Shown: positions 2,647 through 36,170 of the stretch, in pieces
Layout of the letters: each line of letters begins with the position of its first letter
How positions within the stretch are numbered: the first letter of the stretch is position 1
Assembly (NCBI GenBank): GCA_964357395.1
Contig: CAYHLC010000001.1
Coordinates: 1-53,598, forward strand
Direction: 5' to 3'
Source: an uncultured Candidatus Saccharibacteria bacterium
Lineage (GTDB): Bacteria > Patescibacteriota > Minisyncoccia > Phycocordibacterales > Phycocordibacteraceae
DNA: 53,598 bases
Notes under the pieces: model-generated
What the model was told of the DNA's origin: nothing
Database searches by the model: none
The model's input: the letters and a program-made list of their open reading frames with translations, nothing else
Made by a program: the position numbers and the translations under genes

Positions 2647-3852
2647 ATGGCAGGTGACTTTAATCGCACGAAGCCCCACGTTAACGTCGGTACTATTGGC
2701 CACGTTGACCACGGCAAGACGACGCTGACCGCAGCGCTTCTTAACGTATTGTCCCGCGCTGGCAACGGCTACGGCGCAACGGTGAAGGGTGTCGATGATA
2801 TCGACAAGGCCCCAGAGGAGAAGGCTCGTGGTATTACCATTTCGCTCTCGCACTCCGAGTACGAGACTCCCGGACGCCACTACGCGCACATCGACGCTCC
2901 AGGCCACGCTGACTACATCAAGAACATGATTACAGGTGCTGCCCAGATGGACGGCGCGGTATTGGTCGTCGCAGCAACCGACGGCGTGATGCCCCAGACT
3001 CGTGAACACATTCTCCTCGCCAAGCAGGTTGGCGTTCCAAAGATCATCGTCTTCCTCAACAAGGTAGACATGGTTGATGACAAGGACCTCATCGATTTGG
3101 TTGAGGAAGAGGTCCGTGAGCTCCTCACGAAGCAAGGCTTCGATGGCGCAGCTACCCCGGTTATCCGTGGTTCAGGCTTGAAGGCGCTTGAGTCGTCACT
3201 CGCTGGTAAGACTGATGAGTGGACAGAAAAGGTTATGGAACTTGCGAAGGCACTCGATGAGTACATCCCTCAGCCAGAGCGCGATGTCACGAAGCCATTC
3301 CTCATGCCGATCGAGGACATCTTCTCAATCGAAGGACGCGGCACCGTGGTGACGGGCCGAATTGAGCGCGGTATTGCTAAGGTTGGCGAGGAAGTCGAGA
3401 TCGTTGGGTTGAAGGCGACTGCTAAGACGACTATCACTGGTATTGAGATGTTCAACAAGTCTCTCCAGGAGGGTATGGCAGGTGACAATGCAGGCATCTT
3501 GCTCCGCGGTACTAAGAAGGACGACGTAACTCGTGGTCAGGTTATCGCAAAGCCAGGTACCGTGAACCCGCACACCGACTTTGAGGCAGAGGTCTACGTT
3601 CTGTCGAAGGAGGAGGGTGGCCGCCACACTCCATTCTTCTCAGGCTACAAGCCGCAGTTCTACGTCCGTACGACGGACGTGACCGGAGACGTGACGCTCC
3701 CCGAGGGAACTGAGATGGTGATGCCGGGCGATACGATCAAGTTTAAGGTCAAGCTCGTCGCACCAGTTGCGATGGAGGAGCAGATGCGCTTTGCGATCCG
3801 CGAGGGTGGCAAGACCGTCGGCGCCGGAGTGGTAACCAAGATTGTCGCGTAA
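2647..3852 (+). CDS. tuf: Elongation factor Tu
   Basis: [22 protein letters not shown] and NKVD motifs. Confidence 0.99.
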
Positions 3853-3878
3853 GTACTATAGTGGACGCTGAAAAAAGT

Positions 3879-4241
3879 ATGGCCGAAACCAAAACAAAAA
3901 CAGCGTCCCGCAGCAAGAAGGTGGCAGACGCCTCGAACGCTAAGCTCCGCTTGAGCGTTCGAGGCTATGACCACAAAGTCTTGGATCAGTCAGTGAAGCA
4001 GATCATCGACACAGCACTTCGCTTCGATGCGCAAGTCGTGGGTCCCATTCCGCTTCCAACGGTGTTCAAGAAATTCACTGTGTTGCGCTCGTCGTTCATC
4101 TTCAAGAACGCGCAAGAGCAGTTCGAGATGCGCACCCACAAGCGCATTATTGATATTCTGAATCCAAATCCGAAGGTTGTTGACGCGCTCACCAACCTGT
4201 CGCTCCCGTCCGGTGTTTCAGTCGACGTGAAGATGATGTAA
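3879..4241 (+). CDS. rpsJ: 30S ribosomal protein S10 (alternative GTG start at 3861)
   Basis: GPIPLPT...EQFEMRTHKR; operon position. Confidence 0.97.
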   Translation: MAETKTKTASRSKKVADASNAKLRLSVRGYDHKVLDQSVKQIIDTALRFDAQVVGPIPLPTVFKKFTVLRSSFIFKNAQEQFEMRTHKRIIDILNPNPKVVDALTNLSLPSGVSVDVKMM

Positions 4242-13325: not shown

Positions 13326-13595
13326 ATGGCTAAAAAGTCACAACTCGCCCGAAACATAAAAAGAATCCGCTTGACGGAGCGTTTTGCTGCAAAGCGCGCT
13401 GAGCTGAAGGCCGCAGGGGACAATGCAGGCTTGCAGAAGCTCCCACGTAACTCCAGCCCTGTCCGTATCAAGAACCGCTGCTCTATCACTGGCCGCTCAC
13501 GCGCGTACCTTCGTCAGTTTGGCGTATCACGTATCCAGTTCAGAGAGATGGCACGCCGTGGCGAGTTGCCAGGAGTTAAGAAAGCAAGCTGGTAA
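13326..13595 (+). CDS. rpsN: 30S ribosomal protein S14, long Zn-independent type
   Basis: [14 protein letters not shown]...LPGVKKASW; only one Cys. Confidence 0.98.
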
Positions 13596-16007: not shown

Positions 16008-17285
16008 ATGAACGCTTTCTTTACAAAACTACGACTCATCTTTTCCGACTCGGGACTCCTGAGGCGACTTGGCTTCATCATCGGCATTTTGGTTCTGTTC
16101 CGCCTCCTTGCGACTATCCCGATCCCTGGCGTTAACGAGTTGCAGCTCACGCAGTTCTTTAACGACTCACAGCTCCTCGGCGCCCTCAGCGTCTTTTCGG
16201 GTGGTGGACTCTCGAACCTCTCTATCATGATGCTCGGCGTCGGCCCCTACATTACGGCCGCTATCGTCATGCAGCTCCTCACCGTCCTCGTCCCGTCGCT
16301 AAAATCAATGTACCAGGAAGAGGGAGAAATGGGGCGTAAGCGTTTCAACCAGTACTCACGCCTCCTGATGGTTCCTATGGCAATACTGCAGGGTGTAGGC
16401 CTCCTCTATTACTTCGAAACGCAGGGATTGGTGGAGAGCCTCTCGACATACTACTTTGCTATCAACGTCGCGGTCGTGACTGCAGGCTCGATATTCCTTA
16501 CCTGGATGGGCGAGCTGATGAGCGAGTTCGGCATCGGCAACGGTGTGTCCCTCATCATCTTTGCAGGCATCGTAGCGGGCCTTCCTGCAACTATCGCACA
16601 GCTCGCGTTCACCTTCGATGTATCCCAGGTTCCGCTCTACCTCTCGTTCGTCGTAGCGGCGGTCCTCATTACTTTCGGCGTTGTGTACATTTCTGAAGCA
16701 GAGCGCCCAGTCCCCGTTACCTACGCCAAGCGCGTAGTGGGAGCCCAGGTAACCGGTGGCGTGCAGACGTACGTACCGCTCCGCCTCAACCAGGCAGGCG
16801 TCATGCCGATCATCTTTGCGCTGTCGATCCTGACGCTGCCACAGATGGGACTCCAGTTCCTCGCAAGCTGGACCGCAGCTCCCGGTGGCCTCTCGGCACT
16901 CGCACAGACCTTGCTCACGTTCCCAGGCGCCTCCGCTGCGTACGCTCTGTCGTACTTCCTCTTCGTGTTTCTCTTCACGTACTTCTTTACTGCTGTGACT
17001 ATTGACCCAACGCAGATGGCCAATAACTTGCAGAAGAACGGTGCGTTCGTCCCCGGCGTACGTCCTGGTGTCGCAACCGCAGAGCACCTCGGCCGCGTCA
17101 TCACCCGTATCACCTTGGTTGGTGCCGTGTTCCTCGGCGTCATTGCAGTCTTGCCGCTCCTCATGCAGTACCTGACCGGCATCACCGCCCTTGCCCTTGG
17201 TGGCACCGCACTCCTCATCGTCGTGTCCGTAGTCCTCGACCTTGTCCGCAAGATCGACGCACAGATCAGTCTCCGCGAATACTAA
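16008..17285 (+). CDS. secY: Preprotein translocase SecY
   Basis: LGVGPYITA, GIGNGVSLIIF, GVMPIIFA, VPGVRPG. Confidence 0.99.
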   Translation: MNAFFTKLRLIFSDSGLLRRLGFIIGILVLFRLLATIPIPGVNELQLTQFFNDSQLLGALSVFSGGGLSNLSIMMLGVGPYITAAIVMQLLTVLVPSLKSMYQEEGEMGRKRFNQYSRLLMVPMAILQGVGLLYYFETQGLVESLSTYYFAINVAVVTAGSIFLTWMGELMSEFGIGNGVSLIIFAGIVAGLPATIAQLAFTFDVSQVPLYLSFVVAAVLITFGVVYISEAERPVPVTYAKRVVGAQVTGGVQTYVPLRLNQAGVMPIIFALSILTLPQMGLQFLASWTAAPGGLSALAQTLLTFPGASAAYALSYFLFVFLFTYFFTAVTIDPTQMANNLQKNGAFVPGVRPGVATAEHLGRVITRITLVGAVFLGVIAVLPLLMQYLTGITALALGGTALLIVVSVVLDLVRKIDAQISLREY

Positions 17286-26259: not shown

Positions 26260-26781
26260 TTACTTCTTGCCGGCCTTCTCGAGGGTGATCAGGAACCCCT
26301 TTGGTCCTCTCTGGATAGCCTCGGCGACTTTATACTCTTCGGGGATGAGTTTGATAAAGCGCTGTAGCCGATCCTCAAGAAACTTTGGGTCCATGTACTT
26401 GTACCGGCCCCGGAGGAATAGCTCGATCTTGACTCGGTGCCCCTCGCGGAGCCACTCAGCAACAGATCGGGCCTTGCGGGTCAGGTCGTGCTCGCCCTCG
26501 GTTACCTTGACCTGTATAGACTTGGTCTCGGTGACGTGCGACTTAGCCTTCGTCTCGCGCTCCTTCTTCTGCTGCTCGTATTGAAATTTACCATAATCCA
26601 TGATTTTCGCAACCGGCGGGGTCGCGCCAGGGCTGATCTCTATAAGGTCGAGGCCCTGCTTCTTGGCCTGGTCTTGGGCTTCCTTGAGGGAGAGGACCCC
26701 CAGGTTTTCGCCCTCAGCACCGATGACTCGGAGCTCTGCGGCGCGTATTTGAGCGTTGATGTTGATTCGTGGTGTAGCCAA
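26260..26781 (-). CDS. infC: Translation initiation factor IF-3 (non-AUG start, TTG)
   Basis: GLDLIEI, PPVAKIMDYGKF. Confidence 0.97.
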   Translation of the reverse strand: MATPRININAQIRAAELRVIGAEGENLGVLSLKEAQDQAKKQGLDLIEISPGATPPVAKIMDYGKFQYEQQKKERETKAKSHVTETKSIQVKVTEGEHDLTRKARSVAEWLREGHRVKIELFLRGRYKYMDPKFLEDRLQRFIKLIPEEYKVAEAIQRGPKGFLITLEKAGKK

Positions 26782-26889
26782 GGTGTGTCAGGGAGTACTG
26801 TACCATGCATGAGGGGAGCGGGTCTACACAGGTACCGCCTGGACATTTTTGATAAATGGGCATAGAGTTACGGACGTTCAGCATTTTTC

Positions 26890-27408
26890 ATGTGGCGTAT
26901 ACTTTCAAAAATTATTGCGACGCCGAGGGTCACCGAGCCGCGTCCCGCACCGGCAAGTCATGTTGAGGATATTGGAGAAAATCTCAAACAAACCATCCGC
27001 ACGCTCTACGGAGGCCGCTCGCTGAGAATACGGCATATTGACGCGGGCTCTACGAACGGCGAGGAATATGAAATGACGGCGCTCGGAAATGCATACTATG
27101 ATATTGAGCGCTTCGGCATTTCTTTTGTAGCGTCTCCGCGGCATGCGGATATACTTACTGTTTCTGGCCCAGTTACACGCAATATGGAGCATGCACTGAG
27201 GACAGCGTATGATATGACCCCCAGCCCTAAGTGCGTGATAGCACTTGGTGACGGCGCTGCTACGGGTGGAATCTGGAAGGGCTCGTATGCGGTGGTAGGA
27301 GCTGTGTCAGAGGTGGTGCCTGTCGATTATGTCATTGCCGGGGACCCGCCGTCGCCGTCAGACATTCTTCGCGGACTGCTAGGGGCAGTACAGGGAGCAC
27401 GAGGTTAA
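26890..27408 (+). CDS. NuoB/HyfI-like small subunit of an Ehr complex, lacking the Fe-S cysteines
   Basis: YDIERFGISFVASPRHAD, GPVT; GSTNGE, GDGA and GDPP in place of GSCNGC, GxCA and GCPP. Confidence 0.9.
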   Translation: MWRILSKIIATPRVTEPRPAPASHVEDIGENLKQTIRTLYGGRSLRIRHIDAGSTNGEEYEMTALGNAYYDIERFGISFVASPRHADILTVSGPVTRNMEHALRTAYDMTPSPKCVIALGDGAATGGIWKGSYAVVGAVSEVVPVDYVIAGDPPSPSDILRGLLGAVQGARG

Positions 27409-27412
27409 TAGT

Positions 27413-29398
27413 ATGTCCGAGATCATTCAACAGTTGGCCCTTTTTTCTTTCCTGGTGCCGCTTGCAGCGGCAGTGTGGGCGGTAGTGGCGCGCGGATCTC
27501 GAGCCTCGACGTTCATTCAGTGGCTCCTCATCGCTGGCGCAGCAAGTGGCCTAGGCGCTGTAGCGTGCTTTTTCTTCGCCGGATATGCGGGGAGTGGGGT
27601 AGCACTCATGCTGCCTGGGGGGTTTGGTGCCCTGTTCGAAATGCATACACTCTCGGCACTCTTTTTAGGGATTATCTGTACCGGCGCAGGACTCGCCTCA
27701 GTGTATGCGCTTGGGTATTTGCCACGGTATGCAGACGAGTATCCGGGCGGGTGGGTGAATGCCGCGACCGCCTTGTTCATATTTGGCATGATTGGTACGG
27801 TACTGTCGAGTACCGTATTCGGGTTCCTCCTTTTTTGGGAGGTGATGTCTGTCGCGGCGTATTTCCTGGTGATTACCGATCGATCTGCCGATTCGTTGCA
27901 GGCGGGGTTCCTGTACTTCCTCATGACGCACCTTGGTTTTGCTGCCCTGGTTGCAGGGTTTGGGCTCCTTGGGGGCGGTGCGTTTTACGGTACGTTTGGT
28001 GACCTTGCGACGCATGCCGCAACGCTCGAGCCGGGCGTACTCACCGTCGCCTTCCTACTCCTCTTTGCTGGATTTGGTTCCAAAGCTGGTTTGGTGCCCC
28101 TCCACCAATGGCTGCCGTATGCACATCCGCAGGCGCCAAGCCACTCATCAGCGTTGATGTCGGGAGTGATGCTCAAGGTTGCGCTGTTCGGTTTTATACA
28201 GACACTCTTCCTCTTTCCATCAATTCCGCTCACCTGGGCGGCTACAGTCATGGTGGTAGGACTCGTCTCTGCATTTTTCGGCGTTCTCTACGCGGTGACC
28301 GAGTCGGACATCAAGCGTCTGCTCGCCTGGAGCAGTATCGAGAACATGGGCCTCATTTTTTCCGCGATCGGTGCTGTGGGGGTCGTCTATGCACTACCGC
28401 TCGGGGGTGAGGCGGATATACTTGCGCGTGGCGCACTGATTTTTATACTTTTGCACACACTGAATCACTTCCTTTTCAAAACGGGGCTTTTCTTGGCGGC
28501 AGGCGCAATAGTTTCTGGCACGCACACACGTGATCTTGATGCGCTTGGGGGGCTCGCGCGACCATGGCCCTTGTTTGCCGCGGCGACACTAGCCTTGTCG
28601 CTTACTGCTGCCGCACTCCCTCCGTTCGGTGCATTTTTTGGTGAGTGGGCATACATTCAGGCGCTCGCCACAGCACTCACCAGCTCGTCAGTAGCGGTGT
28701 CGTTCGGGGCGGCAGCAGCGCTCTCTATTGTCGCACTCGTAGGAGGCTTGGCGATAGCAACGTTCGTCAAGCTATTCGCAGCAACTTTCTTGGGGCGTGG
28801 GCGCTCCGAAGCAGTGGCCGATGTGCCTTTGCTCCCATTTACCATGCTCCTCCCTATTGGTGTGTGTGCAGTGCTCTCGCTTGGTATGGGCGCTATGGCT
28901 GGCAGCATCGTCTCCTTTTTCGAGAGGGCAGCATTTGGTGTGCGTCCGCTTTTCACTCTCCCTTCAGCAACACTTGATCCTCTGGCAGCATATGGTGCGA
29001 TAGTGTTCGTACCGATCTTCCTCTATGCGCTCTATCGACTCCTAGCGCCACAGCGCAGCAGGAGTACCGATACGTGGGATTGCGGGCAGCCGCTTACACG
29101 GCGTATGGAGTATACTGCTACCGGTTTTGCGGCGCCGATCCGCTTCTTTTTTCGAGCGCTTCTGCTCTCGGAAAAGCGGCTCACAACGCTGCCGGTATCG
29201 GCGGAGAATCCGTGGGTTGCAGAGCACGCGCTTGAGTGGCACCTTACTTCAGTGTGGGAGCGCTCGCTCTACCGGCCTATCGGCAAGGCTGTCGTGTGGT
29301 CCGCGAGTATGGTCAGCAGGTTACAGAACGGCAATGTGCAATTCTACCTGTTTCTCGTGCTTGGTGCGCTAATTGTAGTCATATGGTCGGCGGTATGA
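27413..29398 (+). CDS. hyfB: HyfB/NuoL-like antiporter-type membrane subunit
   Basis: FWEVM, KAGLVPLHQWLPYAH, KRLLAWSSIEN, TWDCG. Confidence 0.9.
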   Translation: MSEIIQQLALFSFLVPLAAAVWAVVARGSRASTFIQWLLIAGAASGLGAVACFFFAGYAGSGVALMLPGGFGALFEMHTLSALFLGIICTGAGLASVYALGYLPRYADEYPGGWVNAATALFIFGMIGTVLSSTVFGFLLFWEVMSVAAYFLVITDRSADSLQAGFLYFLMTHLGFAALVAGFGLLGGGAFYGTFGDLATHAATLEPGVLTVAFLLLFAGFGSKAGLVPLHQWLPYAHPQAPSHSSALMSGVMLKVALFGFIQTLFLFPSIPLTWAATVMVVGLVSAFFGVLYAVTESDIKRLLAWSSIENMGLIFSAIGAVGVVYALPLGGEADILARGALIFILLHTLNHFLFKTGLFLAAGAIVSGTHTRDLDALGGLARPWPLFAAATLALSLTAAALPPFGAFFGEWAYIQALATALTSSSVAVSFGAAAALSIVALVGGLAIATFVKLFAATFLGRGRSEAVADVPLLPFTMLLPIGVCAVLSLGMGAMAGSIVSFFERAAFGVRPLFTLPSATLDPLAAYGAIVFVPIFLYALYRLLAPQRSRSTDTWDCGQPLTRRMEYTATGFAAPIRFFFRALLLSEKRLTTLPVSAENPWVAEHALEWHLTSVWERSLYRPIGKAVVWSASMVSRLQNGNVQFYLFLVLGALIVVIWSAV

Positions 29399-30354
29399 GT
29401 AGCACACTTATTTTGTTTGTGCAGTTCCTCCTTGTACTCGGCATTGCGCCCGGAGTGGTAGGTGCGGTGCGCTTGGTGAAGGCGCGTCTCCAAAACCGCC
29501 GTGGTGCGTCGCTTACGCAACCGTACTTCGCACTTGCGGCACTGATGCGTAAGGAGATGACCATACCGAGCAGCAGTACGTGGGTGTTCCATACCGTCCC
29601 CTTTGTCGTACTGGCGAGTGCACTTTTCTTGGCGGCGGTGTTGCCAACCGTTGGGTATGCCCTCGTGCCTGCCGGGTTTGACAACATATTCCTTATCGCG
29701 GCGACACTTGCTGTGGGCGCGGTCTTTCTCGTTATGGGTGGTATGGATACGGGGAGCACCTTTGGCAATATGGGGGCAAGTCGCGAGATGACACTTGCTG
29801 CGCTCGTTGAGCCAGCGCTCTACCTCGCTCTTGGGACACTCGCACTCGTTGCGGGCTCATGGAGCGTGGGCGCGATTGTGGGCTGGTTCGCAGTGTCTCA
29901 CTGGTTCCTTTCGGTACCATTCGTTGCCATAACACTGGTGGCACTTGTCTTGGTGCTGCTAGCAGAAAATGCACGGTACCCGGTAGATAACCCGGCGACC
30001 CACCTCGAGCTCACCATGGTCCATGAGGCGATGCTCCTCGAGTATTCGGGCCCATACTTGGCGCTCCTAGAGTATGCCTCAGCGCTCAAGCTCACTGCAC
30101 TCGGCATCTTCGTCCTTTCGTTGCTTGCGCCGATCGGTATGGTGGCAAGTGGTGCGACGCTGGGCGCGCTTGCGCTCGGGCTCCTCGCAGCAATTGGTAA
30201 GGCAGGCGTATTGGCACTGCTCGTGGGGGGTATCGAGACCGTCATAGTTAAGATGCGTTTTTATCGGATGCAGGAATATATGTCGATTGCCTACAGCATG
30301 GCGCTCGCGGGGCTATTCCTCACTATTATTCTCAACGCATATTCGGGCCTATGA
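29395..30354 (+). CDS. hyfC: HyfC/NuoH-like membrane subunit
   Basis: ARLQNRRG, GASRE, ENARYPVDNPATHLELTMVHEAM. Confidence 0.9.
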   Translation: MSSTLILFVQFLLVLGIAPGVVGAVRLVKARLQNRRGASLTQPYFALAALMRKEMTIPSSSTWVFHTVPFVVLASALFLAAVLPTVGYALVPAGFDNIFLIAATLAVGAVFLVMGGMDTGSTFGNMGASREMTLAALVEPALYLALGTLALVAGSWSVGAIVGWFAVSHWFLSVPFVAITLVALVLVLLAENARYPVDNPATHLELTMVHEAMLLEYSGPYLALLEYASALKLTALGIFVLSLLAPIGMVASGATLGALALGLLAAIGKAGVLALLVGGIETVIVKMRFYRMQEYMSIAYSMALAGLFLTIILNAYSGL

Positions 30355-31013
30355 TCACCCTCGCAGTACCATTCATCCAGATAACGCTCGCCGGTGCGAT
30401 GCTGGGCACCTCACTTTTGATATTCGGGAGGATGCGTCTGAAGTCGTTCGTCCTACTCTTCGCACTCCAGTCGCTCGCGCTCGCATCGTACGCGGCGACA
30501 ATTGCGCTCATAACGAGCGAGCACGAGCTACTGATTATGGCGGGGCTTATCGTGTTCGTTAAGTCGCTCTTGGTGCCGCTGTTCCTGCTTGGTGTCGCGC
30601 GTCGCTCTGGTGCGAGCGCCCGCCTCCATGCGTACCTCAAGCCCACGCTTGCGACATTCCTCGGTATTGTTGGCATCGCTGCAGCCTTTATCACTGCACG
30701 CGCAGCGCTCTCTTTTTTGGGTGCAGAATACGTGGTTACGAGCGTGGCTTTTTCGCTCATCGTGCTTGGACTCATGCTCCTTATTATTCGGCGAGACCTC
30801 TTTGGACAGAGCATCGGATTTTTGGTGATGGAGAACGGGATATTCTTGTTCGGGCTTGCTCTTTCTTCCGGCCTGCCGCTCCTGGTCGAAATAGGAATCT
30901 TTCTTGATGTGCTGGTCGGATTTATGCTCATGGGCGGCCTTGCCTATCGAGTGCAGAAAGAACACCACTCTGTCGGTACGGAATTGCTAAACACGCTCAC
31001 TGATCGCATATGA
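30351..31013 (+). CDS. hyfE: HyfE-like membrane subunit
   Basis: Hydrophobic; GFLVMENGI and LVEIGIFLD motifs. Confidence 0.85.
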   Translation: MITLAVPFIQITLAGAMLGTSLLIFGRMRLKSFVLLFALQSLALASYAATIALITSEHELLIMAGLIVFVKSLLVPLFLLGVARRSGASARLHAYLKPTLATFLGIVGIAAAFITARAALSFLGAEYVVTSVAFSLIVLGLMLLIIRRDLFGQSIGFLVMENGIFLFGLALSSGLPLLVEIGIFLDVLVGFMLMGGLAYRVQKEHHSVGTELLNTLTDRI

Positions 31014-32470
31014 CACCGGCACTCCTCCTCCTTACCACTTTCTTTGCTGCGCTGCTGCCGCTCGCCCGCGTGAGCACCGTTGTTACCTACCGCCTTGCGC
31101 TGGTGGGCTCAAGCGCCATATTAGTCGCTGGGCTCGCGCTCGGCATACCGATACTGATCGGTGCACCGCTCGTAACTGGCGACGGCTATTGGTACGTCGA
31201 TCGCTTTGCGGCGCTCCTGGTGTGCATCATCGCCTGTGTGCAGTGGACCGCGACCTTAAGTAGTGTGTCGTATCTGCGGCATGAGGCAGCAGACGGCATC
31301 ATTGGCATGACACACGTTCGTTGGTACTACGCAGTGGTATCGCTGTTTGTGCTGACCATGTTTGCGTGCGTGACCGCCAACAACCTCGGTCTCATGTGGG
31401 TAGCACTTGAGGGGACGACGCTTACTACAACACTACTCGTTGCGTTTTATGCACGTGACGGTTCGCTCGAGGCGGCATGGAAGTACCTCATTCTTTGTTC
31501 AGTAGGGATCTCGCTCGGACTTGTGGGCGTACTGCTCGTATTTTATGCTGCCTCCACAGTCGACGCGTCACCACTTATCGGGCAGTGGTTGTACCTGCGG
31601 AGCATCGCAACTCATCTGCCGGCAGAGATTATGTACATCGCGTTTGGATTCATAATGGTCGGATACGGCACTAAGGTAGGGCTGGTGCCTATGCACGCGT
31701 GGCTCCCCGACGCACATAGCCGGACCCCATCCCCAGTCTCCGGCATGCTCTCGGGCGTACTCCTCAGCGTTGCACTTTTTGCGATGCTCCGCTTCAAAAC
31801 GCTTACCGACGGTGCGCTTGGGGATTCTGCCTGGACTGATGGCTTATTCCTCGCGTTTGGTGCGCTCTCCGTCATCATCGCTGCCGCGTTTATCCTCGTG
31901 CAGCGTGATTACAAACGACTCCTTGCCTATTCATCGATTGAGCATATGGGACTTACCGTCTTCGCATTCGGACTTGGCGCGCCAGGCATGATTGCTGGCG
32001 TGATGCACCTCACGGGGCATGCGCTCGCAAAATCGATGCTCTTCTTCGCATCCGGCAATATACTCAACTATTATCGCAGTACACTGCTTGCGCGAGTCGG
32101 CGGCGTGGTGCGTCGTTTGCCGTACTCGGGCACCTTTTTTCTCATCGGCATCGCCGCCCTTTTGGCCGTGCCGCCGTCGCCGCTCTTCTTTAGCGAGTAT
32201 CTGATCATTACGACTGCGGTAATGTCACATCCGTGGTATCTCGCTGGCATCAGCGTGGCGCTCGCGGTGATCCTAGCGGGTATGCTTCAGTTGTTGATAC
32301 CGGTGCTCCTCAAGAACACGGCCGATACCCGCGGGGAGAGGGAACCCGAGGCGCTGACACTCTCGCACGCCGCAATGCTGCTCCACGTTGTTGTGCTGTT
32401 TGGTATGGGAGTCTTCTTTCTCATGCCACAGGGGTACGAGTTTATTAGAAGCATAGTACAGAGCATTTAG
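31010..32470 (+). CDS. hyfF: HyfF/NuoM-like antiporter-type subunit
   Basis: WVALEGTT, EAAWKY, GTKVGLVPMHAWLPDAH, KRLLAYSSIEHMG. Confidence 0.9.
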   Translation: MTPALLLLTTFFAALLPLARVSTVVTYRLALVGSSAILVAGLALGIPILIGAPLVTGDGYWYVDRFAALLVCIIACVQWTATLSSVSYLRHEAADGIIGMTHVRWYYAVVSLFVLTMFACVTANNLGLMWVALEGTTLTTTLLVAFYARDGSLEAAWKYLILCSVGISLGLVGVLLVFYAASTVDASPLIGQWLYLRSIATHLPAEIMYIAFGFIMVGYGTKVGLVPMHAWLPDAHSRTPSPVSGMLSGVLLSVALFAMLRFKTLTDGALGDSAWTDGLFLAFGALSVIIAAAFILVQRDYKRLLAYSSIEHMGLTVFAFGLGAPGMIAGVMHLTGHALAKSMLFFASGNILNYYRSTLLARVGGVVRRLPYSGTFFLIGIAALLAVPPSPLFFSEYLIITTAVMSHPWYLAGISVALAVILAGMLQLLIPVLLKNTADTRGEREPEALTLSHAAMLLHVVVLFGMGVFFLMPQGYEFIRSIVQSI

Positions 32471-32471
32471 T

Positions 32472-34010
32472 ATGTCACTCGAATCATTTGCTGCTGCAGC
32501 AGGTCTCATGTGTGAGAAGGGGGCTATCCGCACACCGCGTGAGTCTTTTGCAGACACGGTCACCACGCTCCTTGCGCGGGGAGCACGACTCACCCTTATG
32601 TACGCAACCGATGATCGTGAGATGAGTGGAGATTTCGGCGTGCATGCGGCGCTGGCAATCCCGAGGGAGGTGGACCTCGTCACTGTTTCGACGGTGGTCC
32701 CTGCGCACGATGCATCGTACCCATCGCTGACCAAGAGCTGCATGGCAGCACACTGGTACGAGCGGCAGATGCATGACCAGTTTGGCATTGTTGCAGTTGG
32801 ACACCCTGACTGGCGGCGCCTCATGCATCATGAAAATATCCCCGAGGGCACCTACCCCCTGCGCAAAGATTTCGCATGGGACACACGCCTCGCTCATGCG
32901 GCGGTCCCGTACCCCATGCATCAGGTGGAAGGGAAGGGTGTCTATGAGATCCCGGTCGGACCGATCCACGCAGGCATCATTGAACCAGGACACTTCCGCT
33001 TTAACGTGCGGGGCGAGCGCATCCTCACTTTGGAGGGGAAATTGTTTTTCACCCATAAGGGCGTGGAAAAGTTGGTCGAGGGCAGGACGCCCGAGGAGGC
33101 GCTGCCGTTTGTTGAGCGTGTTTCTGGCGATATGCCAGTGGGGCACACGCTTGCGTATGTGCAGGCGGTTGAGCGTGTATGCGCAGCGGTGGTTCCAGAG
33201 CGCGCAGAGTACCTCCGTACGATATATAACGAGCTCGAGCGGGTGACTATGCACGTCTTTGATATCGGCAATATTGGCGGCAACGGGACCGGGTTCACCT
33301 TTATGGCAGCACAAGGCTTCAGAAATGTTGAGATACTACGGCGTCTCTTTGCGCAGCATGTTGGGCACCGTTTTCTGCGCGGGGCGATAACGCTTGGGGG
33401 CGCGCACGATCTGTCCGGGGCAGCAGTGCAGGATATTGTCGCAACCGTTGAGCGTGTCACAGCGGATATGCAGCAGGTGATCGACATCGCGTACGCGAGC
33501 GATGGGCTCATGGAGCGGTTCGAGACGACTGGTATCCTAACCCGAGAGGCTGCGGGTGCATACGGCGCCGAAGGGGTTGCCGCACGCGCTTCCGGCGTGG
33601 ATCGCGATATGCGTCGCGATCATCCCTATGCGGCATACCAGCACAGTGCACCAAGTGTGATTACCGAGACTGCCGGCGATGTCGCTGCGCGCTTCGCTGT
33701 CCGTGTGCGAGAGCTCCTCGAGTCGTTGCGTCTTATCAAATCGTGCGCCGCTGCGCTGCCGGAGGGGGCGGTGCAGGCTCCGCTCGTGTACCGCGCGGGG
33801 AGCGCGTATGGGTGGGCAGAGGCGTGGCGCGGCGGGGTAGTCGACTGGGTACGGATGGACAGCGCAGGGAAGATAGATCGTCTGGTTATTCGCGACCCGT
33901 CGTTTTGTAACTGGCCACTCTTTGGCGAGTTGGCACCCGGCAACATTGTGCCCGACTTCCCGCTTTGCAACAAAAGCCTCAACCTCTCGTACTCGGGAAC
34001 TGATCTTTGA
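32472..34010 (+). CDS. HyfG/NuoCD-like large subunit of Ehr type, without NiFe CxxC motifs
   Basis: VGPIHAGIIEPGHFRF, HKGVEK, ERVSGD, DFPLCNKSLNLSYSGTDL. Confidence 0.9.
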   Translation: MSLESFAAAAGLMCEKGAIRTPRESFADTVTTLLARGARLTLMYATDDREMSGDFGVHAALAIPREVDLVTVSTVVPAHDASYPSLTKSCMAAHWYERQMHDQFGIVAVGHPDWRRLMHHENIPEGTYPLRKDFAWDTRLAHAAVPYPMHQVEGKGVYEIPVGPIHAGIIEPGHFRFNVRGERILTLEGKLFFTHKGVEKLVEGRTPEEALPFVERVSGDMPVGHTLAYVQAVERVCAAVVPERAEYLRTIYNELERVTMHVFDIGNIGGNGTGFTFMAAQGFRNVEILRRLFAQHVGHRFLRGAITLGGAHDLSGAAVQDIVATVERVTADMQQVIDIAYASDGLMERFETTGILTREAAGAYGAEGVAARASGVDRDMRRDHPYAAYQHSAPSVITETAGDVAARFAVRVRELLESLRLIKSCAAALPEGAVQAPLVYRAGSAYGWAEAWRGGVVDWVRMDSAGKIDRLVIRDPSFCNWPLFGELAPGNIVPDFPLCNKSLNLSYSGTDL

Positions 34011-34254: not shown

Positions 34255-34380
34255 ATGGCACTTGGTGAGGGCGTAGGGTCTTCTCCGGATACTGCGGTGT
34301 CCTTCGGTCTTGTTGCGCTGCTGATTATCGTGTGTGCGCTCGTTGGAGATGCATACGCCAACCGCCACTACAAGCGCTAG
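34255..34380 (+). CDS. Putative 41-aa single-TM microprotein
   Basis: MALGEGVGSSPDTAVSFGLVALLIIVCALVGDAYANRHYKR; TGG-TACAGT-N8-ATG. Confidence 0.5.
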   Translation: MALGEGVGSSPDTAVSFGLVALLIIVCALVGDAYANRHYKR

Positions 34381-34676
34381 TGTCCTCGGTGTGGCGACTT
34401 TTCCCGTTCCGCTTTCCGTCGGGCGGATTCGTGATCGCTCGCTATATTCATCACAACGCTGTAGATCATAAGCCCAAGAAGCGGGAGCGTGCCAACGACC
34501 TCTATCGCATACCATTGCTCCCTGGTAATGGGTATCAGTCCGGATTCGTCGGCGATGAGCGCGCCGAGCGCGCCGAATGCTGTTATGACCGCAGTCCATG
34601 GGACCACCCTGCGTGCATCCATGGCCTGATTCCTCCGGTCCCGTGCTATCCAGTGTCTATCTTTTGTTTTTGCCAT
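34377..34676 (-). CDS. Small orphan membrane protein, 2 TM
   Basis: Two hydrophobic helices with basic ends. Confidence 0.65.
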   Translation of the reverse strand: MAKTKDRHWIARDRRNQAMDARRVVPWTAVITAFGALGALIADESGLIPITREQWYAIEVVGTLPLLGLMIYSVVMNIASDHESARRKAEREKSPHRGH

Positions 34677-34682
34677 ACTCTG

Positions 34683-35000
34683 TTACATCGTGCGGTGATA
34701 ATCTTCTTGGGCGTTTTCTTCCTGTTTGGCAAAGGTGCCGTTCCAGTATGCTAGGTATATCGTAGCGACAAGTGCAAGGATGCCGCCTATCAATACCTCC
34801 TCGAATGAAAGCTCTCCGTTTTCCTGATAGCTGCTCGACAGATAGGCGAGGTCAAAAAGCAGTGTTGCAACAACGCCTATTTGCCGTGCGCGCGCCCGGG
34901 CGGCTTTTTGTCCCACGACGCGCTCTAGCTTTCTTTTATGCCTTACTTTCCTCTCTTGATAGGCGATCTGCTCGTCGGTTAGCCCTTCTCCAAATTCCAT
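34683..35000 (-). CDS. Small orphan membrane protein, 2 TM
   Basis: MEFGEG... start; basic N-region followed by two hydrophobic helices. Confidence 0.65.
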   Translation of the reverse strand: MEFGEGLTDEQIAYQERKVRHKRKLERVVGQKAARARARQIGVVATLLFDLAYLSSSYQENGELSFEEVLIGGILALVATIYLAYWNGTFAKQEENAQEDYHRTM

Positions 35001-35048
35001 ATACACGGGCGCCAAGCGCCATGTGCGAAAAAATCGCTTATCAGTAAG

Positions 35049-35137
35049 GGCCAGGGAAGGGGGTGCAAAAACCTGATGTTTATCGCGCCTGTAGCACAAG
35101 AAATATCAAACTTCTGCTGGCCCCGCCTCCTAGGCCA
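35049..35137 (-). ncRNA. Unassigned rod-shaped RNA or structured leader, about 90 nt
   Basis: TTGACG-N17-TAGACT promoter (35172-35144) then a G-U-rich long hairpin. Confidence 0.5.
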
Positions 35138-35241: not shown

Positions 35242-35289
35242 ACCTCCACAAACTAAAACTGCCCCGAAGGGCAGTTAGTTTGTGGAGGT
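35242..35289. terminator. Long hairpin after tmRNA that includes an inverted copy of its 3' end
   Basis: ACCTCCACAAACT..AACTGCCC-CGAA-GGGCAGTT-AGTTTGTGGAGGT. Confidence 0.75.
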
Positions 35290-35682
35290 GGAGAGTAATG
35301 AGCTCTCGTCCAAAAAACGTATTTCGGATGTGTCTACTGTGTGTAGTTTGTTTCAGCATTTAAGTACTACAGTAAGAATCAAACAAGATAATGTAGTACC
35401 GAGCTCTTAATTTTGAACTATCGTCGAGCGGTCGATAGTTCTGATCCTGAGGTTATTACACCAGAGCTACGCTATCAGGAGTCACGTAGGTAGCGCCGTC
35501 CTGGCCGAAGCGAGAACGGAATCGTCATGAGTTATGCCATTACCGGAGCAAGGGCGAAGTACTCACGAGGACTTGCGACAAGTGCTTTTGCATTTATCGT
35601 TTGTTCGAGATTTTAGGTGTTCTCCAACATTCACCACACAGCAACAAAAGAAATATATCTCTTGTCGAATCAGGTCACCCCC
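35283..35682 (-). ncRNA. ssrA: tmRNA
   Basis: 5' GGGGGTGACCTGATTCGAC; 3' CACCTCCA with G3-U70; tag AKALVASPREYFALAPVMA* (35591-35532); lies directly downstream of smpB. Confidence 0.93.
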
Positions 35683-35726: not shown

Positions 35727-36170
35727 TTATTCACCTTTCAAAGTTCTGTCCATGTCCCGCGCGGCATCTCTATCCTTGAGGGCGGCGCGCTTGTCGTGGG
35801 CCTTTTTCTTGCGAGCCAAGCCAAAGCTGAGCTTCAAGAACCGGTTCTTATTATACACCATTAATGGTATCAGTGTCAAGCCCTTCCTCGAGTCCGCCCC
35901 CTCCAGCTCCCGTAGCTCCTTCCTACTCAAGAGGAGTCGCCTGGTACGCTCGGGGTCGTAGCTCTTGGGGACATTGCCCTGTTGGTATGGGCTAACGGTT
36001 GCCCCCACTAAGTATGCCTCATTCCCTCTGATGACGATATGAGCGCCTATTAGTGACCCTTTGCCACCCCTAACCGATTTGACCTCATGCCCATAGAGCT
36101 CGATCCCGGCTTCGTACGTTTCCAATATCTCGTACTCGAGCCTAGCCTTTTTGTTTTCGAGGAGTGCCAT
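35727..36170 (-). CDS. smpB: SsrA-binding protein
   Basis: NKKA, EAGIEL.G.EVKS, RTRRLLL, KKAHDKR. Confidence 0.98.
   Translation of the reverse strand: MALLENKKARLEYEILETYEAGIELYGHEVKSVRGGKGSLIGAHIVIRGNEAYLVGATVSPYQQGNVPKSYDPERTRRLLLSRKELRELEGADSRKGLTLIPLMVYNKNRFLKLSFGLARKKKAHDKRAALKDRDAARDMDRTLKGE

Follow-up and report, generated by a model that had tools for sequence, protein, structure and literature searches.

The stretch of DNA analysed here, referred to below as the window, comprises 53,598 nucleotides of contig CAYHLC010000001.1 from an uncultured Candidatus Saccharibacteria bacterium (GenBank assembly GCA_964357395.1). At positions 26890-34010 on its plus strand it carries six tightly packed genes whose products resemble, in order, NuoB/HycG, HyfB, HyfC, HyfE, HyfF and NuoCD/HycE, and the best reading of their sequences is that they encode an energy-converting-hydrogenase-related (Ehr) complex of a subclass without redox cofactors. 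As to function, we regard it as close to an even call that the complex would be a redox-independent secondary ion translocator linked to the proton-motive force (pmf), that is, an Mrp-like cation/proton exchanger or a pH-homeostasis device. The host is an ultra-small groundwater bacterium whose genome amounts to 796 kb on 18 contigs and is rated 100% complete from its marker genes. An earlier note on this DNA had described a complete and tightly coupled six-gene operon, and this is borne out, with gaps and overlaps of 1-4 nt: the first two genes are 4 nt apart, each of the next three junctions is a 4-nt ATGA overlap, and 1 nt separates the last two genes. The subunits were identified from Pfam and NCBIfam profile matches.

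The first gene (26890-27408, plus strand) encodes a NuoB/HycG/MbhJ-like small subunit of 172 amino acids (PF01058, E 4e-25), and it is the single copy of PF01058 in the host genome. In a HMMER alignment to MbhJ (6cfw_J, E 9e-27) and HycG (7z0s_G), the four positions that hold the [4Fe-4S] cysteines are occupied by T55, E58, G122 and D152: GSTNGEE stands in place of GSCNGC(D/E), GDGA in place of G(A)C(P/G) and GDPP in place of GCPP. On the plus strand the codons for T55-N56-G57-E58, which replace the CxxC of the cluster motif, lie at 27052-27063, those for D121-G122, of which G122 replaces the third cluster cysteine, at 27250-27255, and that for D152, which replaces the cysteine of GCPP, at 27343-27345. 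The earlier note had all four cysteines replaced, which stands for T55, E58, G122 and D152, but its reading of GDGA does not: the third cysteine became G122, and the neighbouring D121 is ancestral and no replacement, Asp being found there also in 33 of 91 relatives that keep four cysteines. The only cysteine left in the protein, C115, is not conserved. Among the 120 best small-subunit homologues, which are 63-100% identical, E58 and D121 are each present in all 120 and G122 in 119; position 55 is T in 103, N in 9 and S in 8, position 152 is D in 116, S in 3 and N in 1, and 44 of these proteins have no cysteine at all. An AlphaFold2 model of the small subunit has a mean predicted local distance difference test score (pLDDT) of 90.8 and superposes best on MbhJ, with a root-mean-square deviation of 1.6 Å over 132 columns.

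The last gene (32472-34010, plus strand) encodes a fused NuoC and NuoD/HycE-like large subunit of 512 amino acids that matches PF00329, PF00346 and the N-terminal part of PF00374. Its alignment to HycE (7z0s_E, E 2e-63) agrees with the earlier claim that no NiFe CxxC motif is left in it, as the four NiFe cysteine positions hold S218, M221, S506 and G509. The motif RVCGICGFAH of HycE corresponds to RVSGDMPVGH, with the codons for S218-G219-D220-M221 replacing CGxC at 33123-33134 (plus strand), and DPCYSCTDR corresponds to NLSYSGTDL followed by the stop codon, with the codons for S506-Y507-S508-G509 replacing the C-terminal CxxC at 33987-33998 (plus strand). The protein ends at this SGTDL, aligned to the C-terminus of mature HycE, and has no C-terminal extension. 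Among 120 large-subunit homologues position 218 is S in 112 and T in 8, M221 is kept in 108, and S506 and G509 are each kept in all 120; altogether 140 of the 512 positions are conserved in 117 or more of the 120. I170 and G219 align with His38 and Tyr87 of Thermus Nqo4, which we take to be the ligands of the quinone head group, and neither quinone ligand is present. Seven residues upstream of S506 lies C499, which is invariant in the Kaiserbacteria-type clade. In the former NiFe pocket of this clade M221 (33132-33134), C499 (33966-33968) and H225 (33144-33146) are all invariant or nearly so, and this Met/Cys/His set may be a new metal site or may compensate for changes in packing.

A complex from which all cofactor ligands are gone, and whose operon is patchy in its distribution (13 of 151 genomes of the family and 10 of 401 genomes of a phylum sample, the window's own genome being counted in both), could be a decaying, non-working relic of a hydrogenase or of complex I. 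We consider this scarcely credible, as all six genes are under strong purifying selection. Ratios of nonsynonymous to synonymous substitution rates (dN/dS, by the Nei-Gojobori method), taken from three unsaturated pairs with dS of 0.03-0.68, are 0.09-0.20 for the small subunit, 0.10 for HyfB, 0-0.045 for HyfC, 0-0.025 for HyfE, 0.08-0.11 for HyfF and 0.05-0.085 for the large subunit, comparable with those of infC (0.06-0.095) and smpB. The same six genes stand in the same order, with no extra gene, no stop codon and no frameshift, in all 11 relatives with a contig that covers the whole operon; a twelfth relative, whose contig breaks off, is not counted. The residues that replace the ligands are themselves conserved, and the fold of the small subunit is predicted with confidence. 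Decay is thus rejected by dN/dS and by residue conservation in the 120 small-subunit and 120 large-subunit homologues, and the same evidence contradicts the case that the earlier note had named as fatal to its idea, namely substitutions unique to this genome under relaxed selection. Among the relatives the small and large subunits are 64-76% and 63-69% identical, respectively, as against 37-61% for the membrane subunits. So high a conservation of the cytoplasmic cap, which these two subunits form, speaks for a role beyond that of a plug in the membrane arm.

The membrane arm is encoded by the four genes in between, all on the plus strand. The HyfB/HycC/NuoL-like antiporter-type subunit (27413-29398, 661 amino acids, PF00361) has NF005086, hydrogenase 4 subunit B, as its best NCBIfam model (E 4.5e-137) and matches HycC (7z0s_C) at E 2e-50 and MrpA at E 2e-29. 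It retains the Glu of transmembrane helix (TM) 5 and the Lys of TM7, TM8 and TM12, with E143 present in 11 of 12 sequences and K224, K255 and K356 in 12 of 12. The HyfC/HycD/NuoH-like membrane anchor (29395-30354, 319 amino acids, PF00146), whose start is the ATG that overlaps the preceding stop codon, matches HycD (7z0s_D) at E 2e-30 and has 21 charged residues that are invariant in 12 sequences, E191, D198, E205, E211 and E216 among them. The HyfE-like small membrane subunit (30351-31013, 220 amino acids) matches NF008556, the hydrogenase 4 membrane subunit, at E 1e-23, which is below the curated cut-off, and had no match in a PDB search at E up to 1; K71, R91, E161 and D186 are invariant in its 12 sequences, and one of the invariant residues is a Glu within the membrane. 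The HyfF/NuoN/MbhH-like antiporter-type subunit (31010-32470, 486 amino acids, PF00361; NF005045 E 5.5e-115) matches MbsH and MbhH at E of about 1e-32 and keeps the TM5 Glu, E134, and the TM7 and TM12 Lys, K222 and K341, in 12 of 12 sequences, while the TM8 lysine position is occupied by S here and by N, S or T in relatives. Since the charged residues of the ion path are conserved in the antiporter-type, NuoH-like and HyfE subunits alike, the ion-conducting hardware of the membrane arm looks intact.

A cluster could in principle be supplied to such a complex by other residues or subunits. The operon has no ferredoxin-type gene, and the lack of a NuoI-like ferredoxin remarked on before extends to the whole 796-kb genome, which has no match to Fer4 or Fer4_7 and in which the motif CxxCxxCxxxCP is absent from all six-frame open reading frames (ORFs) of at least 50 amino acids. 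The check for suf/isc genes that had been proposed gave no match to SufBD or NifU_N, nor was there one to radical-SAM, in the host genome; one cysteine desulfurase-like gene was found. Because no ferredoxin, Fe-S scaffold or typical Fe-S client was found, a cluster from other residues or subunits is unlikely in this host. SufBD was found in 0 of the 151 family genomes, compared with 130 of the 401 phylum-sample genomes, and radical-SAM genes occur in 45 of the 151, including 3 Ehr carriers.

Comparison with known systems places the operon among the Ehr complexes. Its large subunit is homologous to that of group 4 [NiFe]-hydrogenases with both CxxC motifs gone, and it encodes two antiporter-like subunits (PF00361), a NuoH-like subunit (PF00146) and a NuoB-like subunit (PF01058). 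Of what characterizes the group 4 hydrogenases themselves, the four NiFe cysteines, the four proximal-cluster cysteines and a 2x[4Fe-4S] ferredoxin subunit (HycF/HyfH/MbhN/EchF) are all absent. Formate hydrogenlyase of E. coli (Hyc, 7z0s) is the best sequence match for the small, large, HycC-like and HycD-like subunits, and hydrogenase 4 (Hyf) provides the best NCBIfam models for HyfB, HyfE and HyfF; unlike Hyc and Hyf, however, the window operon has no NiFe ligands, proximal cluster ligands, HycF/HyfH ferredoxin or formate dehydrogenase. The closest fold for the small subunit is in the membrane-bound hydrogenase (MBH) of Pyrococcus furiosus (6cfw), in which MbhH, MbhL and MbhM are homologous to HyfF, the large subunit and HyfC, but the NiFe site, the three clusters and the Na+ module (MbhA-C and others) of MBH have no counterpart in the operon. 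The Mrp Na+/H+ antiporter (6z16) is redox-free, and its antiporter-like subunits have the same Lys/Glu residues as the operon, in whose MrpA/MrpD-type subunits the Glu of TM5 and the Lys of TM7 and of TM12 are conserved (11-12 of 12 sequences); Mrp comprises MrpB, C, E, F and G and no NuoB/NuoCD/NuoH-like module, whereas the operon has the cap and the NuoH-like subunit, with HyfE as its only small subunit. With complex I (NDH-1) the operon shares a homologous Q-module (NuoB, C, D), NuoH and the antiporter-like subunits, but it has neither N2 ligands nor quinone ligands, there is no NuoI-type protein in the genome, and in place of the three antiporter-like subunits L, M and N the host genome has two PF00361 genes.

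Operons of this kind have been described before. According to the main text of Jaffe et al. 2020 (PMC7304191), sequences from the candidate phyla radiation (CPR) form a monophyletic group within Ehr, their NiFe cysteines are missing and the proteins are likely unable to interact with H2, so that the earlier statement that Ehr-like operons in CPR are not new in themselves is already in print. The CPR Ehr operons of that text have Mrp-like membrane subunits and a sparse, patchy distribution, as does the window operon; its coverage of cysteines is limited to the large subunit, and small-subunit cluster loss, the absence of ferredoxin and selection are not part of that main text. Homologues of the operon bear the names of Candidatus Kaiserbacteria, Parcubacteria and Patescibacteria. 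Outside CPR, the function of Ehr complexes is described as unknown for Geobacter (PMC7894505), Nitrospira, Margulisbacteria and the Mycobacterium tuberculosis complex (PMC6728331), and the Ehr or 'hyc' operon of the last, Rv0082-Rv0087, has the same six subunit types as the window operon.

Two variants were seen within CPR. In 13 loci a T/S-E-G-D small subunit goes with an S-M-S-G large subunit and the invariant C499, and in 8 loci a T/D-C-D-D small subunit goes with an S-S/T-S-G large subunit and I499. Another CPR genome of the phylum sample has, at locus L122 (G275:C15), a small-subunit homologue of 52% identity that retains all four cluster cysteines, on a contig too short to show an operon, and therefore both cluster states exist within CPR. 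Of 10 CPR loci outside the window's family, 2 have ATP synthase genes directly upstream of the operon and in the same orientation. In one of them, L101, F1Fo ATP synthase genes (49-1861) end 386 bp before the Ehr small-subunit gene, and in the other, L130 (1-5632), they end about 2.4 kb before it.

These variants bear on the possibility, which we consider doubtful, that the complex is still an enzyme. The former NiFe pocket (in this clade S218, D220, M221, H225, C499, K501 and S506, presumably close together in space) would then bind a substrate or a new mononuclear metal, the reaction catalysed, whether redox or not, would drive ion translocation or be driven by it, and a soluble carrier docking straight onto the complex could supply electrons. 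The 140 conserved positions of the large subunit include the beta1-beta2 loop GPIHAGIIEPGHFRF and the surroundings of the old site, the cap subunits are better conserved than the membrane subunits, and M221, C499 and H225 form a soft-ligand set, near-invariant in the Kaiserbacteria-type clade, that co-varies with the small-subunit pattern across the 13 loci. The 8 loci of the other variant, however, have S or T at 221 and I at 499, so the putative metal site is not family-wide; and there is no ferredoxin or molybdopterin enzyme match and no extra gene in or beside the operon.

Antiporter-like subunits drive CO2 hydration in systems of the NDH-1MS/CupA and DabAB types, and the earlier note had offered a pmf-coupled CO2/bicarbonate or formate device as one possible use of the complex. 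By analogy with those cyanobacterial systems, with DabAB and with formate hydrogenlyase, the complex could be a pmf-driven CO2-hydration/bicarbonate device or a formate-linked one, and in Geobacter (PMC7894505) Ehr subunits are more abundant on formate. The host genome gave no match to molybdopterin enzyme or formate dehydrogenase families or to beta-carbonic anhydrase, a search that did not include alpha- and gamma-type carbonic anhydrases, DabA or FocA; none of the six operon genes resembles CupA or DabA, and no Cys/His set of the kind that binds Zn is common to the CPR variants. These results tell against such a device, and we hold it to be very unlikely.

The cluster-less form is a large multi-phylum minority and no peculiarity of CPR. 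A small-subunit search of 1.84 billion cluster representatives at 50% identity gave 151 sequences that could be classified, of which 91 have all four cysteines and about 20 have none or one; Cys-poor ligand patterns include D-A-A-D, D-E-D-S and S-E-G-D. In a quick tree of 126 rows, for which the four ligand columns were masked and 25 gappy rows dropped, the 17 Cys-free rows need 9 state changes by parsimony, and the starred branches force at least 4. A locus scan with one genome per species and the Cys-less alignment as query, which biases it to Cys-less members, gave 80 loci. A Cys-poor small subunit (0-1 Cys) is combined with a NiFe-less large subunit (0 Cys) in 23 of them, a four-Cys small subunit with a NiFe-less large subunit (0 Cys) in 42, of which 10 have a nearby ORF with the ferredoxin motif, and any small subunit with a large subunit that has all four NiFe cysteines in 10; the other 5 are other combinations or have the large subunit out of reach. 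With the bias of the query kept in mind, the 42 loci against 23 fit the view expressed in the earlier note that Ehr small subunits usually keep their cluster. The 23 Cys-poor, NiFe-less loci are mostly from Actinomycetota, with Methanosarcina (2), Dehalococcoidales, Candidatus Moduliflexus, the unclassified metagenome-assembled genome (MAG) of L101 and a Kaiserbacteria MAG (L103) in addition, and no CxxCxxCxxxCP ORF was found within 9 kb of any of the 23.

Cys-poor small subunits, with mostly Asp, Glu or Ser at the ligand positions, occur in Actinomycetota, Chloroflexota, Methanosarcina and other lineages. When 46 Cys-poor small subunits from several lineages are taken together, acidic or polar residues occupy the four ligand positions in 45, 30, 34 and 44 of them, respectively, and two or more acidic residues are found among these positions and position 121 in 43 of the 46. 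The alignments indicate that the cluster ligands have been replaced by oxygen-donor residues several times in the cluster-less Ehr subclass. An oxygen-ligand metal site, as suggested before, is consistent with these counts as far as the donors are concerned, while the binding of a metal is putative. In a Chloroflexota MAG we also observed a small subunit (L052, 8572-9417, plus strand) with one of the four cluster cysteines and a ferredoxin-type domain fused to its N-terminus, the large subunit of which keeps all four NiFe cysteines; by its sequence this would be a hydrogenase-like enzyme apparently without a proximal cluster.

The scanned actinobacterial Ehr loci likewise have a Cys-less small subunit, with a D-E/D-D-S pattern, and a NiFe-less large subunit; the M. 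tuberculosis proteins themselves were not among them. Unlike the window operon, they have the gene order HyfC-E-F-CD-B-HyfB, and their identity to it is about 40-50% for the small and about 30% for the large subunit. An Rfam search placed a fluoride riboswitch (RF01734) 100-250 nt ahead of the first operon gene, and in its orientation, in 7 of 12 actinobacterial Cys-less loci (L035, L037, L038, L040, L041, L043 and L048, at about 3840-4120 in each). Two of the remaining loci have a riboswitch elsewhere, on the opposite strand, and three have none, and none was found before four non-actinobacterial Cys-poor loci. According to a 2024 review (PMC11139923), fluoride riboswitches mostly control fluoride exporters, followed by Na+/H+ antiporters as the second most common class, and 'formate hydrogen lyase' is another common target, read there as a metabolic shift. 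The riboswitch-linked genes of the scanned loci have no NiFe or Fe-S ligands, so the 'formate hydrogen lyase' targets may be Ehr, and the sequences suggest that, at least in the scanned loci, they are cofactor-less Ehr complexes. The locus of Actinocatenispora comari (L043) has two more fluoride riboswitches (13461-13521 and 16761-16824, both minus strand), which lie before NUDIX and DUF211 genes and before an acetyl-CoA synthetase reading frame that is split or overlapping; together they resemble a small fluoride-responsive island.

Because electron entry, cluster, NiFe site and quinone site are all missing, the complex can be no redox pump as far as known cofactors go. A secondary ion translocator appears to be the best-supported function because the ion paths are conserved, organisms of this kind depend on a pmf made by the ATPase, relatives carry the riboswitch and no other antiporter families were found in the genome: there are no PF00361 genes beyond the operon's two, hence no Mrp, and no match to Na_H_Exchanger. 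CrcB likewise gave no match in the genome. The F1Fo ATP synthase is encoded on another contig, and its c subunit has neither the Gln nor the Ser/Thr that we take to be the signature of Na+-binding rings. The cation/H+ antiporter proposed in the earlier note thus receives support, all of it indirect, from the ion-path residues, the actinobacterial riboswitch and the ATP synthase genes upstream in 2 of 10 CPR loci. As we envisage it, the fermentative host would build a pmf with its F1Fo ATPase, and the complex would work as a secondary translocator tied to that pmf. The acidic pocket that replaces the cluster (T55, E58, E59, D121 and D152) and the conserved former active-site loops would probably serve as a binding site for a proton or cation, or as a gate, and would relay this to the membrane arm via the same loops that complex I uses.

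Several observations weigh against a secondary ion translocator. The best conserved parts are the cytoplasmic subunits, which would fit a still unrecognised catalytic role as well. A module of the MrpE/F/G or MbhA-C type, the presumed carrier of Na+ in Mrp, MBH and MBS according to a review (PMC8165549), is absent from the Hyf-type arm. The fluoride clue comes from the actinobacterial relatives, with the low identities and different gene order given above, and no riboswitch or other RNA element was found before 17 CPR loci, the window's included, as against 7 of 12 actinobacterial loci. The negative genome searches extend only to the named families, and the host does have its cysteine desulfurase-like gene, which stands alone. 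Of the 9 other Cys-poor Ehr carriers in the phylum sample 6 have SufBD, so the loss of the cluster does not go hand in hand with that of SUF, and the idea that it is a consequence of losing Fe-S assembly is rejected as a general rule. PF00999 (CPA) occurs in 3 of 13 family carriers of Ehr compared with 18 of 138 non-carriers; Ehr does not exclude CPA antiporters, and a complementary distribution of Ehr with CPA Na+/H+ exchangers was not seen. For CrcB, none in the 151 family genomes scored above the family cut-off, and its complementarity with Ehr is uninformative.

A bolder form of ion translocation, which we rate as unlikely, would have the peripheral arm rebuilt from an electron-driven into an ion-driven switch. 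The pockets would bind a cation or protons, and the change of charge would drive the membrane arm by way of the loops that serve quinone reduction in complex I. The sites in question would be the carboxylate/hydroxyl pocket, made of Asp, Glu, Ser, Thr or Asn in several cluster-less lineages, and the conserved former NiFe/quinone pocket; in a still bolder sub-variant, Met, Cys and His would form a new mononuclear metal site where the NiFe pocket of the Kaiserbacteria type used to be.

On the left the operon is flanked by infC-rpmI-rplT (26781-25713, minus strand). A promoter-like site, TGGACA-17 nt-TAGAGT (26840-26868, plus strand), ends 21 nt before the first ATG and has 9 of 12 consensus matches; it is a weak candidate, as 7 such sites are observed in the region compared with 4.9 expected by chance. 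No Rfam element was found in the interval 26700-26950 at E up to 1. None of the 8 sequencing runs listed, which come from 2 studies, is of RNA. On the right are two small unassigned ORFs, a tmRNA and smpB. The two ORFs (34377-34676 and 34683-35099, both minus strand) lie between the operon and the tmRNA, contain hydrophobic stretches, have no Pfam match and may not be real genes. The tmRNA (35280-35682, minus strand) directly adjoins smpB (35727-36170, minus strand), and this pair flanks the Ehr operon in most relatives of the same genus.

To our knowledge, no function has been assigned to any of the Ehr complexes, which occupy an intermediate place between Mrp antiporters, membrane hydrogenases and complex I. 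In the literature searched, which included few subscription journals and no supplements, we found no description of small-subunit cluster loss or of recurrent oxygen-donor replacements, and no account of complete redox-site loss or of the identity of the riboswitch-linked genes. The subclass described here is strongly conserved and spread over several phyla; it has no known redox-cofactor site yet keeps the whole coupling architecture, even in a host without detectable Fe-S machinery. What had been a 'hydrogenase that cannot bind H2' becomes a testable machine of the complex-I type that would run on ions or on unrecognised chemistry, and the fluoride riboswitch before the actinobacterial members is a first physiological handle on Ehr. 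If the ion-driven switch is true, it would be a natural complex I without electrons, in which the long-debated coupling mechanism could be studied with ions alone, and the actinobacterial counterpart would be an effector of fluoride or acid stress. For the biology of CPR, the complex is a likely pmf-linked addition to the equipment of organisms that possess an ATP synthase and lack a respiratory chain.

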